Notes: generated by a model not told the origin, from the letters alone. A stretch of 64,000 nt of DNA from Candidatus Bathyarchaeota archaeon (GCA_963775465.1 CAVZIW010000003.1:256001-320000), one strand, 5' to 3'. Shown: positions 55,940 to 61,849, numbered from the stretch's first letter. Translations and numbers: made by a program.

Positions 55940-56188
55940 TGGGTAAACTACCAAGAAGGGGTCAGGCTCCATCTTCACATACGCAAACACGGCTAGCGCT
56001 ATACTCCAAAAGACGTCGGCTGGCTTCCGTTGGGGTGAGAGTAGCATCTGGCGTCATCTTTACATATCTCATAATGTTCGGACGTTTAATTCGCTGCAGA
56101 TATCCCCTCGATATGGGCGCCCCCAGTTGAGCAGTGGATAGAAGACTTGGTTGTTTAGAGGTCTCTGTTTAAGCAAACCAGTCATTTC
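55940..56188 (-). pseudogene. Terminase large subunit 3' remnant (copy 4)
   Basis: EMTGLLKQR...YPLLNWGRPYRGDICSELNV...SHPNG..DVFWSIALAVFAYVKMEPDPF, homologous to 60377-60640. Confidence 0.9.
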
Positions 56189-56225
56189 ATTTTGGTGCAA
56201 CAGGATAAATTGCTTCTAAGCCCCT

Positions 56226-57533
56226 TCAGCTAACTAGCAGAAACAGCCATGCAGGAATTACCCAAATTGTCTTATCATCCTGCTTGATTTCGTTTAGAGA
56301 TTCTTCGCTTATGAGGATTCCAATATCTGCTTTGTTTTCTTTCATAAACCTGAGGATCCCTTTTAGCTCATTTTTTCCTATTTCTTTTCTATACTTAATT
56401 TCTAATGGGATCAGCTTTTTGTTTTGTTCAAGAACCACGTCAACTTCGTTTGTTCCTCGCCGCCAATAATATCTTGCTCTGCAAGAAACTACCACCAAGT
56501 TTTCGATTACTTTGGACAATGTTTCCTTTTCTTGGAAGCTTTGAGGGTCAAGTGAGAATATGATGCCTGTTGAGAGAACATAGGTTTTTGGAAGTTTCCT
56601 GATAGAAATTGCGCCTTTCCGATAGTTTGATGTTTGATGGAGGAGCAAGGCATATTTTAGAAGTTGGAAATAGTTTGAAATTGTTCTTCTATCTCTCTTC
56701 AAATCGTTTGAAAGGCTAATGTAATTAGTAAGCATGCCAGGGTTTGCACAAACCATTTGTATTATTTTTTCAAATAGTTCAAAATCTCGCTTTTCAATCA
56801 GAAAAGCGAAATCTTTGAAGAGAACTCTATCGGTGACGCTATTTCGAATATACTCGGCAATCATTTTCTCGTTATTTTCTTCAGTTAACTCTGGAAAACC
56901 GCCCTTTCTCACATAGTCAAAGAATAGAGGCAGCAATCTTGTTTGTTTTAGGTATTCTTCTTTGAGACTTGTATAGTCAAATTCAACATGTCCAATAGGC
57001 ATGTGTTTGAGACCTAAGAATTCTTTGAAATCAAGTGGGCTAACGGATACAGAGAAGAACCGTCCGGCCAGTTTTTCTCTAACGGACCTCTCAATCAGTA
57101 ACGAAGCTGAGCCAGATACAACAAATTTGATTTTTGGGTAAAGATCGTAGAATGTTTTTAGTTTTCCTTCCCAACCTTTTGAGTATTGCACTTCGTCGAG
57201 GAAAATGTAGATTTTTTCTGTGATTGATGAGAAACCTGTCATTAAAACATTTTTTTCAAAATGCTCCAGCACCTGTCCTAAATCTTTTTTTTCTTCATCG
57301 AAGGAAAAATAGAGAATATTTCTAGGTTTAACCCCCTGCGATAGTAATTCTTGAATGATTTGGAAAATGATTGTGCTCTTTCCAACCCGCCTCAAACCTG
57401 TGATAACTATGATTTGCCTGTTCGCTATTTCGTCTAAAACCTGAAAGTAACAGGCTCGTTTGAAAGGTTTGGCTAAGTCTTCCGAGATTTTGCCTGTGGC
57501 CCAATGCTGATTAAATCTTTGCAAATGCGCCAT
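56226..57533 (-). CDS. AAA+ ATPase (AAA_14 + DUF4143 PD-(D/E)xK-like C-terminus)
   Basis: GLRRVGKST, FLDEVQ, SGSA, GGFPE, EN, EVDVV...PLEIKY. Confidence 0.9.
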   Translation of the reverse strand: MAHLQRFNQHWATGKISEDLAKPFKRACYFQVLDEIANRQIIVITGLRRVGKSTIIFQIIQELLSQGVKPRNILYFSFDEEKKDLGQVLEHFEKNVLMTGFSSITEKIYIFLDEVQYSKGWEGKLKTFYDLYPKIKFVVSGSASLLIERSVREKLAGRFFSVSVSPLDFKEFLGLKHMPIGHVEFDYTSLKEEYLKQTRLLPLFFDYVRKGGFPELTEENNEKMIAEYIRNSVTDRVLFKDFAFLIEKRDFELFEKIIQMVCANPGMLTNYISLSNDLKRDRRTISNYFQLLKYALLLHQTSNYRKGAISIRKLPKTYVLSTGIIFSLDPQSFQEKETLSKVIENLVVVSCRARYYWRRGTNEVDVVLEQNKKLIPLEIKYRKEIGKNELKGILRFMKENKADIGILISEESLNEIKQDDKTIWVIPAWLFLLVS

Positions 57534-57668
57534 ATCTGTACACTACTGTGTACTAATATTTAAGTTATAAGTACAATGCAATGTACAGAAAAGTATGTTC
57601 CAATCCAATCTTGACAGGATATTAAATTCCTAAATTGTTAAGAAAAAACTCTGATCTCAATCAAGAAC

Positions 57669-57793
57669 AAACACTGCCTAATACTCTGGTTCAACAGACG
57701 TCCGCTGGGGTCAGTTAGGGTGAGAGTGGCATATTGCGCTTCATTGCGCAGCTTATAGAGATCGACTTTTTATTCGCTACATAATTCCCCGCG
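57669..57793 (-). pseudogene. Terminase large subunit 3' remnant (copy 3, highly decayed)
   Basis: RGELCSE*KVDLYKLRNE...SHPN...DV...AVF. Confidence 0.7.
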
Positions 57794-57852
57794 TTAGGTC
57801 ATTAATGTTCCGCAATAATGTTTATCTGTGTATGTGTACACATACATATTTC

Positions 57853-58086
57853 ATGGGAACGAAAACCATTTCGATAAAAGATGAAGCATATAAAGCACTT
57901 CTCCACGAAAAAACTGACAAGGAGAGCTTTACTGACACAATCCTGCGCATAACAAAAAAGTCAGGCAAAATTGCAGATTGCTTCGGAGCCTGGGAAATGA
58001 CTGACGAAGAGGAAGCAGCCATCAAGGTTGAACTCGCCAAGGGATGGCATCTGGTTCAAGAGAGAATTTCCAATGAAGTGCCTTGA
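57853..58086 (+). CDS. vapB: VapB antitoxin (DUF217-like)
   Basis: TKTISIKDEAY..L...K...ESFTDTILR; overlaps vapC. Confidence 0.85.
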   Translation: MGTKTISIKDEAYKALLHEKTDKESFTDTILRITKKSGKIADCFGAWEMTDEEEAAIKVELAKGWHLVQERISNEVP

Positions 58087-59372: not shown

Positions 59373-59630
59373 CTAAAGTTTGACGCTTGTTTGTAGTAAT
59401 TCCTGAAGCTTTGGATTGTCGGGAAAAATCCAAACTATTCTTCTGCCGTCAAAGATTATTTTGTTAGAGCTTTCAAGGTACTTTAGTATGCGGTTGAAAG
59501 TTTGGTATTGAATTTTTTTTGGGAGGATTTCCCATAATTGCTTTCTGGTAGGGTATGAACCGGACTTCTTAATAGCATTCTCAACCATAAGGATAGTATC
59601 AAGACGTGGTTCATGAAGGGTTTGTGTCAT
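59373..59630 (-). CDS. Small winged-helix protein
   Basis: PRLDTILMVE...LWEILPKKIQYQTF..IL.YLE.SNKI. Confidence 0.75.
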   Translation of the reverse strand: MTQTLHEPRLDTILMVENAIKKSGSYPTRKQLWEILPKKIQYQTFNRILKYLESSNKIIFDGRRIVWIFPDNPKLQELLQTSVKL

Positions 59631-59831
59631 TATTTTCTTACCTCTCAACATACCATATTATACAAACTTATATAACTTTTGTACCCAGTGCTTTCTAACA
59701 AATTGGATTGCACCTTCCTTTGCAGTGTATTCTTGGGATCTCTACGTCGCATACGCGTCAACTTAGAAAGCCGAACTCTCAAAGTTTGGATGAAGGGGAC
59801 AAAAATAGCATAAGAGCCACAATAATTGTTA

Positions 59832-60234
59832 TTAGGTGAGACGTAAGATCTCAAGCATCTGACCGATAGTTGCAATCTCTGCGTTCAAACTTTCTGAGTG
59901 TCAATAGGTGTTTGTCTCCGCTTACAATATAGTCTGCCTTGCCATTGAAGGTATGAGGAAAACTAAATTATCGTCAGGTCTTCCAATATGACCTTCAGGT
60001 TGCCGCTAACAGATGTCACTGTGATCTTCCTTAGTAGAAGTGAAATAAACAAATCGATTTGAGCGTTAGTTATTATAAATTTATTCCTTGATAGGATATA
60101 AGCAAGCTCAGCCACCATTTGGCTAGACAATATTACCGTATGTTTGTCTAGCAATCTTTGAACGAGCTCTAAGGGGTTTCCTTTTTTAATTAGCGCTGGG
60201 GCACTAAGACGTTAGTGTCAATAAGTAGAGTCAT
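59832..60234 (-). pseudogene. PIN-domain toxin (MJ1680/PIN_3-like), frameshifted
   Basis: LIDTNVLV...SSQMVAEL...ED/DDN...KADYIVSGDKHLL across frames. Confidence 0.75.
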
Positions 60235-60235
60235 T

Positions 60236-60372
60236 CTATTCGCCTTTTCGGCCTCGCTTCTCAAGCCTGTAGCTCTGAATTTCTTTTAGGAGCTCCTTTT
60301 CAGAAATTTTCCCTTTTTGTTGTTTCCTGACTTCACTAGCCAGCTTTTCTAATTCTTCCCCAAAAGAAGGAA
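60236..60372 (-). pseudogene. 3' remnant of the cognate antitoxin
   Basis: ...ISEKELLKEIQSYRLEKRGRKGE* directly before the PIN start; 5' part replaced by the terL end. Confidence 0.45.
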
Positions 60373-60376
60373 AACT

Positions 60377-61849
60377 CTAGTTTCGCGGGATAACTGCTGA
60401 GAATGGTTCTGGCTCCATCTGCACGGATGCGAACACGGCTAATGCTATGCTCCAGAAGACGTCGTCATGTGTGCCTCCAGGGTGCGAATAGCCTATGGTG
60501 CCGTCTTTGCGTAGCTCATAGCGTTCGACATTTAGTTCGCTACAGATGTCTCCTCTGCAGGGTTTTTCCCAGTTTAGTTAGGGATAGTAGAATTTGCCGC
60601 TGGTCATGCGTTGCTTTAGAAGGCTTGCCATCTCGCTTTTTCGGGGCACACTAAAATTGACGCCCTCCGCGTTCTCAATGCCCGCCGCTTCCATTTCAGC
60701 AATAAAACTTGGACCTTCACGGGTAAAATCCACCCGAATACGTTCAAAGCCTCCCCAGCGATCCTGTAGAGCCTTAATGTAGCCTAAAACGTTGGCATAC
60801 ATCGTGGGCTGTTTGAAAATTTCGAGGTGACGCAGATACAGAGTATCATTTCTCCTCTCTATCACCGAGAAAACAGTGTAGTCTTTGGTTTGAGCGAGGT
60901 CTAACCCGGCAAAAAACTCGCCTTCCTGCGTAACTTCAGGATCAAGTAGATCAAGCTCTTCCATGCAATTTTTTACTGTGCCAATGCAGGAAGCAATCAA
61001 ACTCTGCGTTAACCAAACGTTGTCATCCTCAACCCATTCCGCCTCCATCTCACGTCTCCAACGAGAAAGATCATCGCCCATCTGAATCTTTATCTCCTGG
61101 AAAGTATTGAACAATAGAGGTCCGTTAGGACTTAGGGCTTTTTCGATAGTGACATGAGAGGTTTTAAATTTGCTAAAGTTCTTGTGGGTAAAAATCTTAT
61201 AAAAGATGCTGTCGGTGTCCCAAGGCGTACTGCTACACACGAACTTGCCATCAGTCGTTCCAAGCGTATAGAGAATGGCATCGTAGAGATCCTGATCATT
61301 AGCCACGAAATTAAACTCATCCGCGTAAACCACATCAAAGGTTGGACCTCTGATGGTTTCAGGATTGTTTGGGAAAGCCTCAATGCTGCTTCCGTTAACA
61401 AAATCGATTTTCGTTTTCTGTGGCTTGAAAACAATTCCTGCTGGAAGCTTATGAGCGAATGCTGCTATGCGCGATATGATTCTTTTTGTTTGACGCCAAG
61501 AGGGACCCACAATTCCGATCGAAGCTTTTGGATGTGTAACCGCATATTTTAGAAGTAACGCCGATATCGTTGCGGTTTTGCCGCTTTGTCTGCACCACCG
61601 GGCAGCGGTGAACTGGTTATTCTCAAAGATTTCAGCGAACTCTTTTTGGTATGCATAGGGCTTGAAACCTAAAACCTGCTCAAGGAAATCAACGGTATTA
61701 ACGCTTAATTGCTGCGTCTTTTCAATGGCTGTTTGCCTTAACCGAAGGTGTTCCTGCTCAATCTCATGAGATTTAGCTAGAAACTGATTGGGCCGCAGGG
61801 TTCGAGCTTCTTTCTTTGAGCTCTTTGAGCGTCTGTTGTAATTGCGCAT
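60377..61849 (-). pseudogene. Terminase large subunit with in-frame TAA at 60578-60580
   Basis: PYAYQ, Walker A RQSGKT, Walker B VYADE, SSTP, nuclease GLDLA..KD; HDD motif lies after the stop. Confidence 0.9.

Follow-up and report, generated by a model that had tools for sequence, protein, structure and literature searches.

When the end of one gene recurs several times behind the gene itself, each time with different DNA in between, the question arises as to what has placed it there. The gene considered here is terL, encoding the large terminase subunit, on a 64,000-nt stretch (the window) of the genome of a Candidatus Bathyarchaeota archaeon (G000). Behind terL lie three co-oriented remnants of its 3' end, all on the minus strand, with cargo between them, so that direct repeats of the terL 3' end flank each insert. 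A first-pass annotation of the window had described four co-linear copies of this 3' end separating different cargo modules, and had taken it for a recurrent integration anchor behind which cargo accumulates in the manner of an integron. The four-copy layout was verified by repeat families D1-D4, by translations and by alignments, and a different module was indeed found in each interval, namely a composite module 1, a VapB-PIN pair and an AAA_14/DUF4143 ATPase. The locus was compared with that of a sister genome (G022) and with further terL loci (L-numbers); the main set comprised 81 Bathyarchaeia loci, 80 of them public and one being the window. The copies are referred to below as tails 2, 3 and 4, copy 1 being the end of terL itself (Table 1).

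Copies of the terL 3' end in the window

G022 is 97% identical to G000 across the region and lacks exactly 1833 bp, which correspond to module 1 and one repeat copy; it has a single terL 3' end followed directly by VapBC. The live terS-terL genes of the two genomes are 99% identical. In G000, positions 58549-58807 equal 60382-60640 exactly over 259 nt, TAA included, and the homology ends at the stop codon. The difference between the two genomes is bounded exactly by this repeat, and the G022 state is most simply explained as the product of a crossover between the two repeats.

The 5' part of tail 2 (∼105 nt) displays a different history from the perfect repeat that adjoins it. It is only ∼70% identical to the terL of G000, with a 37-nt insertion and a frameshift, and the switch from the 259-nt repeat is abrupt. 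Its identity to every terL tested is 72-75%, with 2 gaps, while the live gene shares 83-88% identity with its orthologues over the matching stretch; this equidistance from all terL genes suggests that the 5' part is old. The presence of 259 identical nucleotides next to decayed sequence indicates that tail 2 is probably an old copy whose 3' part has recently been overwritten by gene conversion. The same nonsense codon is found in terL (60578-60580) and in tail 2 (58745-58747), at a position where other samples have Leu, and marks a very recent conversion between the two; tail 4 also has Leu where copies 1 and 2 have TAA.

The left junction of module 1 was the one junction examined. The module starts in the middle of an antitoxin gene, which is intact in another genome (G106), and the join coincides with 4-5 matching nucleotides at the terL stop; a loose contig end in run X6 continues into the intact antitoxin gene. 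Truncation of the antitoxin at such a microhomology suggests that module 1 was joined illegitimately.

The first-pass annotation had named chimeric assembly as the alternative to real tail copies, and the junctions were checked against Logan contigs of four runs (X1, X2, X6 and X9) from four studies, one run possibly being the source sample. The junction of module 1 with copy 1 is bridged by record 5 of X1 and record 14 of X2, that of the 5' part of copy 2 with module 1 by record 4 of X1, record 13 of X2 and record 29 of X9, and that of VapC with copy 2 by record 28 of X9. Unitig depth in X2 is 9.9 in the repeat as compared to 5.4-7.0 beside it, and G022 has tails 3 and 4 as well. With three junctions bridged, the tail copies are not chimeras. 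The Logan contigs display no joints, skips or circles, but contigs break at repeats and drop rare forms, so that this is uninformative either way. The contigs of X1, X2 and X6 read A for T at 60579, giving Leu in place of the TAA of terL, and an X9 contig reads Leu in copy 2 as well (58746); the nonsense codon of terL is hence private to this strain or assembly.

Tails and chimeric terL genes across Bathyarchaeia

The 81 loci contain 11 separate terL fragments, in nine loci, after contiguous frameshift pieces in five loci had been set aside. All 11 are C-terminal, lie downstream of a full-length terL and are on its strand, a uniformity that exceeds chance; their first residues fall at amino acids (aa) 354-460 and their last at aa 482-491. 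The 81 loci yielded no separate fragment that was N-terminal or internal, that lay upstream, or that was on the opposite strand. Further arrays occur at L029, L030, L032 and L168, and elsewhere (L059, L068, L083 and L125) the cargo between terL and its tails consists mostly of toxin-antitoxin pairs. A bias towards the C-terminus was also recorded across the genus, when equal 131-aa thirds of G022 TerL were each searched in the same 120 genomes: the N-terminal, middle and C-terminal thirds gave 223, 249 and 330 matches, respectively. Remnants are thus unequally spread over the gene, which disposes of the equal coverage that would have spoken against a special role of the 3' end. Among 80 IMG/VR viral contigs (L173-L252), one carries a tail and one an odd internal terL fragment; this is weak evidence, as the downstream flanks are short (median ∼2.4 kb).

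N-terminal-only terL fragments exist in the genus and are few (G010:C19:260998-261381; G029:C11:225162-225569 and 651252-651626; G050:C63:24659-24976; G023:C5:319401-319789). Most of them end at ∼aa 133-139, so that terL may have another recurrent breakpoint.

Shifts of identity inside terL, with foreign DNA beyond them, were observed in two cases. Over the flank and the 5' part of terL, up to ∼nt 550, L029 and L030 are 82-92% identical (84-89% before the shift), and over the remainder of the gene 62-74%. L029 then carries a 4-kb insert behind terL, followed by a 185-nt tail and cargo that are 94% identical to the terL end and cargo of L030. At L068, the tail is 91% identical to the 3' end of the nearest relative, to which the locus's own live 3' end is only 70% identical. 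The conserved unit is a tail together with the cargo downstream of it. This is seen in orphan tails: the cargo behind those of L156 and L154 is also what stands behind full-length terL in L059/L072 and in L056, respectively. A candidate junction of the L148 orphan tail with cargo resembling module 1 was rejected, the match being to a neighbouring metallo-beta-lactamase-fold gene and not to a junction.

A larger block, made up of a terL end, a UPF0175/DUF3368 pair and a tail, is 72% identical between L059:1902-2988 and L072:2981-4050. The terL lineages of these two loci are 74% identical, and L063, a 91%-identical relative, is without the UPF0175/DUF3368 unit. Either the L059/L072 array is an old one, or the whole unit was transferred in one piece.

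The proposal of a recurrent anchor therefore stands in part. The terL 3' end is a recombination point with tandem cargo in several independent terL lineages; the integron analogy is only partly supported, and the matter of integron-style machinery is taken up below.

Origin of the arrays

The reading preferred here, with a probability of roughly 0.55, is that the tails are scars left at an orphan terS-terL pair of vertical descent by recombination that was homology-anchored and in part illegitimate; conversion and deletion between tails would later have reshaped them. The gene is suited to be a homology anchor because it is conserved and multi-copy, being present in other chromosomal pairs and in proviruses. 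Incoming DNA that starts in or just behind another terL, with cargo behind it, would enter by a homologous crossover in terL, and its second junction would be illegitimate or placed in a tail already there. What had been the 3' end of the resident gene would be displaced downstream as a dead tail, with older cargo still attached, and repeated rounds would stack units of tail and cargo behind one live terL. Later gene conversion between the tails and the live gene would produce a perfect repeat beside decayed sequence, and crossing-over between repeats would loop out, or could re-insert, one module with its tail, as in the 1833-bp difference. Toxin-antitoxin cargo may resist deletion, and may in this way protect the neighbouring remnant.

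Several observations weigh against this reading. The live terL of G000 is native right up to its stop, so a one-step overwrite cannot explain module 1, and conversion or insertion of a circle must be added. Every array tail starts at aa 354 or later; random illegitimate junctions predict some long tails, and a preferred zone or second crossovers in short tails are consequently needed. The reverse of the L068 and L029 pattern is found at L056 and for tail b of L059, where the tail is foreign and the gene has kept a native 3' end, so that the exchange point is not fixed; such opposite polarity needs a variable crossover point or replacement of the gene body at a later time. Neither a donor molecule nor a circle or transfer route was seen, in Logan contigs that cannot show joints across the repeat. 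Moreover, arrays are confined to nine of the 81 loci and a tail to one of the 80 viral contigs, and synonymous divergence (dS) is saturated, which makes the ratio of nonsynonymous to synonymous divergence (dN/dS) of terL a rough one.

Four other explanations were weighed and are taken here in the order of weight given to them, from a recombinase acting in trans, through decay of tandem units and silent cassettes, to an assembly artefact. In site-specific accretion, integrase-less cassettes would use the terL 3' end as their attachment site and a recombinase supplied in trans, by host XerA or a provirus integrase, as modelled by integron cassettes and by the integrative mobile elements exploiting Xer (IMEX) at dif. 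Tandem co-oriented repeats of a gene 3' end are the classic footprint of integration, a module with one repeat is present in G000 and missing in G022, and the cargo, which consists of toxin-antitoxin pairs and an ATPase only, has no integrase of its own. A tyrosine integrase (c17, PF00589) is encoded by related intact elements, and five PF00589 matches lie on other contigs of the genome. This explanation is nevertheless unlikely, and integron-style machinery is not supported, as evident from the absence of any PF00589 match on the contig (C3), of any core common to all four copies beyond 7-8 nt (ascribed to coding conservation) and of attC-like folding in the 341-nt tail region, which folds no better than shuffles (z = +0.82). 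Tail starts are spread over aa 354-460, the 3' limits of the tails lie anywhere between ∼10 nt ahead of the stop and +60 nt beyond it, crossover points vary among loci, and the left junction of module 1 cuts a gene. Such features favour homologous together with illegitimate recombination. Plain decay would begin from tandem proviruses or terS-terL units, of which everything was deleted except toxin-antitoxin genes that cannot be lost and the adjoining bit of terL. Such deletion does occur, since at the orphan tail of L146 terS aa 3-30 are fused directly to terL aa 381-490; no full-length terL lies within ∼8 kb in 12 of the 12 orphan-tail loci fetched, L148 and L149 have more terL-like DNA upstream of their orphan tails, and frameshifted terL genes are common among the loci surveyed. 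A doubtful explanation it remains for the arrays, as no terS remnant was found upstream of any tail in the G000 array or, at E ≤ 0.01, downstream of terL in the 81 loci, and no other virus gene stands between the tails. The near identity of terS-terL in G000 and in G022, which is without module 1, makes a second unit unnecessary, and whole tandem units would collapse by recombination without leaving tails.

The two remaining explanations are considerably less probable. By analogy with the copying of pilS into pilE in Neisseria, the tails might be a store of alternative TerL C-termini that are copied in by conversion and alter terminase docking. The 259-nt conversion tract joins terL and tail 2, some tails are in frame and derive from other terL lineages (tail a of L059 has 100% protein and 78% DNA identity), and the last 150 nt of the live gene at L068 are foreign. 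Stops or frameshifts in most tails, a nonsense codon within the conversion tract in this assembly, unrelated cargo between tails that are not packed together, and tails in only nine of 81 loci make such a store very improbable. Chimeric joins would be conceivable in a metagenome-assembled genome of 15 contigs, in which short reads would have difficulty in spanning a perfect repeat of 259 nt. The unique junctions are, however, bridged by independent contigs of the four runs, the X2 depth is raised in the repeat, two tails recur in G022 and similar arrays occur in unrelated assemblies; an artefact is thus highly implausible.

A further idea, which is held only tentatively, draws on lateral transduction and gene transfer agents as models. 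Orphan pairs may be domesticated packaging modules, from which packaging would begin and proceed by way of terL into neighbouring DNA. Toxin-antitoxin and defence cargo directly behind terL would then be exported preferentially and would re-insert by recombination anchored in the terL of a recipient, and this traffic would have left the tail arrays as its scars. If so, the terS-like/terL pair would serve archaea as a self-targeting shuttle platform for small cargo. It is considered rather improbable at present.

The layout may be compared with systems already known. When integrative elements accumulate one after another at the end of a tRNA or protein gene, co-oriented partial copies of its 3' end are left between the inserts, with the live gene intact at one end and older copies decaying. 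The terL array shares the co-oriented partial copies, the live gene at one end and the decay of older copies, but differs in its small inserts (0.7-1.8 kb), its variable crossovers and its want of an integrase and a fixed core. Integron arrays are similar in that small, mostly promoter-independent modules, often toxin-antitoxin pairs, are stacked behind a fixed gene with repeats in one orientation; the terL array, unlike these, has neither an IntI-type recombinase nor an attC-like folded site, bears cargo on both strands and has coding remnants as its repeats. It thus fails the defining tests of both island accretion and integrons, namely the recombinase, the core site and the folded site. In moron and defence hotspots, e.g. 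of P2/P4-like elements, variable accessory genes lie between conserved phage or satellite genes on both sides, without a series of 3'-end remnants. The terL array resembles these in having variable accessory genes exchanged beside a conserved core gene, and in a sequence similarity that stops at the gene border; the terminase pair here is, however, orphan and chromosomal and is followed by 3'-end remnants.

In homology-facilitated illegitimate recombination (HFIR), known from bacterial transformation and conjugation, one end of the incoming DNA joins by homology and the other illegitimately at a microhomology, and foreign DNA replaces the resident stretch beside the anchor. We know of no account of HFIR acting repeatedly, with stacked products, at a single virus-derived gene in archaea. 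The L029/L030 pattern and the left junction of module 1 are like it; HFIR alone gives replacement and not duplication, so that the G000 repeat needs a further step. By this comparison, the array appears to behave like HFIR (PMC3240628) followed by repeat-mediated rearrangement, at a location that would be a hotspot of the kind known beside conserved phage genes. The terL family of the array is also carried by defective tailed proviruses of Bathyarchaeia that have an orphan terminase. A Bathyarchaeia tailed provirus is mentioned in PMC11697101, and the account given in its accessible part is without the tail repeats and stacked cargo seen here. The view that no described system has this layout agrees with full-text literature searches on Bathyarchaeia, terminases, HFIR and hotspots, which found no description of terL-tail arrays; the supplements, which were outside the search, may list such fragments.

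Uncultured Bathyarchaeia are among the most abundant archaea of sediments, and their gene exchange is little understood. The arrays provide a readable record of repeated gene gain at a conserved, virus-derived gene without a dedicated recombinase, and show how toxin-antitoxin modules can spread and persist. In annotation, short terL-like fragments in Bathyarchaeia genomes are not to be counted as proviruses.

The terminase pair and the cargo of the window

Coordinates of the pair, its tails and the modules are collected in Table 1. Window proteins were searched against Pfam profiles, and PHROGs was used for virus families.

Table 1. Features of the terL array and its surroundings, in window coordinates
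Feature	Position	Strand	Remarks
Small helix-turn-helix (HTH) protein, terS-like partner	61773-62234	minus	Overlaps terL start; presumed terS from its position
terL, large terminase subunit	60380-61849	minus	490 codons; one in-frame TAA at 60578-60580 (codon 424)
Copy 1 of the 259-nt perfect repeat	60382-60640	minus	Inside terL 3' end; exact match to 58549-58807
Module 1	58912-60379	both	Absent from G022
Module 1: MazE/AbrB antitoxin and PIN_3 toxin	∼59700-60379		Antitoxin 5'-truncated, toxin broken
Module 1: small open reading frame (ORF)	59373-59651	minus	No family
Module 1: small ORF	59033-59371	plus	No family
Tail 2 (copy 2)	58545-58911	minus	terL aa ∼354/375-490; 3' 259 nt equal to terL
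Module 2: VapB antitoxin (57805-58086) and PIN toxin (58028-58465)	57805-58465	plus	Intact
Tail 3 (copy 3)	57669-57793	minus	Short, heavily decayed; ∼aa 433-475
Module 3: AAA_14 and DUF4143 ATPase	56226-57533	minus	435 aa, intact
Tail 4 (copy 4)	55940-56188	minus	aa ∼393-487; stops present; ∼75-78% DNA identity
Distal cargo beyond tail 4	54635-55719	plus	Small ORF without family (55429-55719); MazE-type antitoxin (54635-54871) with truncated PIN

TerL of the window matches Pfam Terminase_6N over aa 87-285 (E = 3.5e-18), which identifies the N-terminal packaging ATPase domain. Its orthologue in G022, 98% identical, matches phrog_2 over aa 47-477, and the alignments to phrog_2 and phrog_5909 reach aa 474-477, in the putative C-terminal nuclease region. 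The TAA at codon 424, where the open frame stops at 60578, removes the last 66 aa of the G000 protein, a stretch which we take to hold the catalytic residues of the nuclease. Full-length TerL relatives, 483-509 aa in length, have no stop inside. The small HTH protein yielded only HTH and regulator families in PHROGs and only a weak GcrA match in Pfam, and no terS family matched it in either database.

The small HTH gene and terL form a conserved pair in 27 of 29 loci (cluster c1), with surrounding genes that are mostly not conserved, and no portal, capsid or tail gene was found beside terL within the window. Directly upstream of the pair (window 61773-64000) stands a UbiD-type host gene. A UbiD homologue is directly beside terS in seven of the ten closest relatives fetched (L157, L158, L161-L164 and L166), none of the ten having a separate terL tail. 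Between UbiD-linked pairs, dN/dS of terL is 0.07-0.11, rough values owing to the saturated dS. The terL family is present in 30 of 36 sampled genomes of the genus, often in several full-length copies, and identity to the query terL does not exceed 67% in the best viral contigs. In this Bathyarchaeia genus the orphan terS-like/terL pair is kept by purifying selection and appears to descend vertically, and the UbiD-linked pair looks like a vertically inherited, selected gene pair of viral derivation. A selected terminase pair fixed beside a host gene raises the question of its use by the cell or by viruses.

A larger element is common to only four of the 29 loci (L043, L045, L048 and L052). It encodes a tyrosine integrase and a tail-like protein, and terL is followed in it immediately by an ABC-ATPase/acetyltransferase gene. 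When the two ORFs behind terL were tallied over 79 loci, the ABC-ATPase/acetyltransferase type accounted for 22-23 of the 147 ORFs, as compared to six PIN, five MazE, two UPF0175, two DUF3368 and three TIR. Of the viral contigs, 14 in 80 end 1442-1519 nt past terL, right after the ABC-ATPase/acetyltransferase gene, at either a genome terminus or an assembly break in a variable region. Inserts within the pair itself were also recorded: terS is split by ∼1.2 kb at L109 (8374-8523, 9733-9993), and terL by ∼1.5 kb between aa 173 and 175 at L169 (1516-2016, 3541-4491).

The cargo names of the first-pass annotation were retained for the VapBC pair (VAPB_antitox, E = 9.4e-14; PIN, E = 1.9e-17; the antitoxin gene overlaps that of the toxin, as in VapBC-type pairs) and for the AAA ATPase (AAA_14, E = 1.1e-35; DUF4143, E = 5.6e-20). 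Its 'PIN pair' is a degraded MazE/PIN_3 remnant, and the genes labelled 'wHTH' and 'RelE' gave no significant Pfam match. Tail 3 is 71% identical to a terL panel over 125 nt in blastn (53.6 bits) and is missed by tblastn. A scan of 53500-62500 against Rfam at E ≤ 1 gave one chance-level miRNA match and no known RNA family otherwise.

The MazE/PIN_3 genes of module 1 are intact at locus L134 of G106 (MazE 95 aa, PIN_3 148 aa; 85% identity). The two halves of the module are found separately in other genomes, with homologues in 43 of the 119 remaining genomes of the genus. An origin of module 1 behind another terL was considered and is unsupported, as none of the 11 homologue loci fetched has a terL within 1.5 kb.

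The distal cargo beyond tail 4 includes an antitoxin that matches MazE_antitoxin in Pfam (E = 4.1e-9), and homologues of this cargo lie between terL and a tail in G010 and at L168 of G113 (81% identity). A stretch of 284 nt of G022 (L025:7368-7652) is missing at window 55063/55064, inside the PIN gene beside the MazE antitoxin; the PIN ORF is 53 aa long in G000 as compared to 151 aa in G022, and the distal PIN toxin of G000 is broken by this loss.

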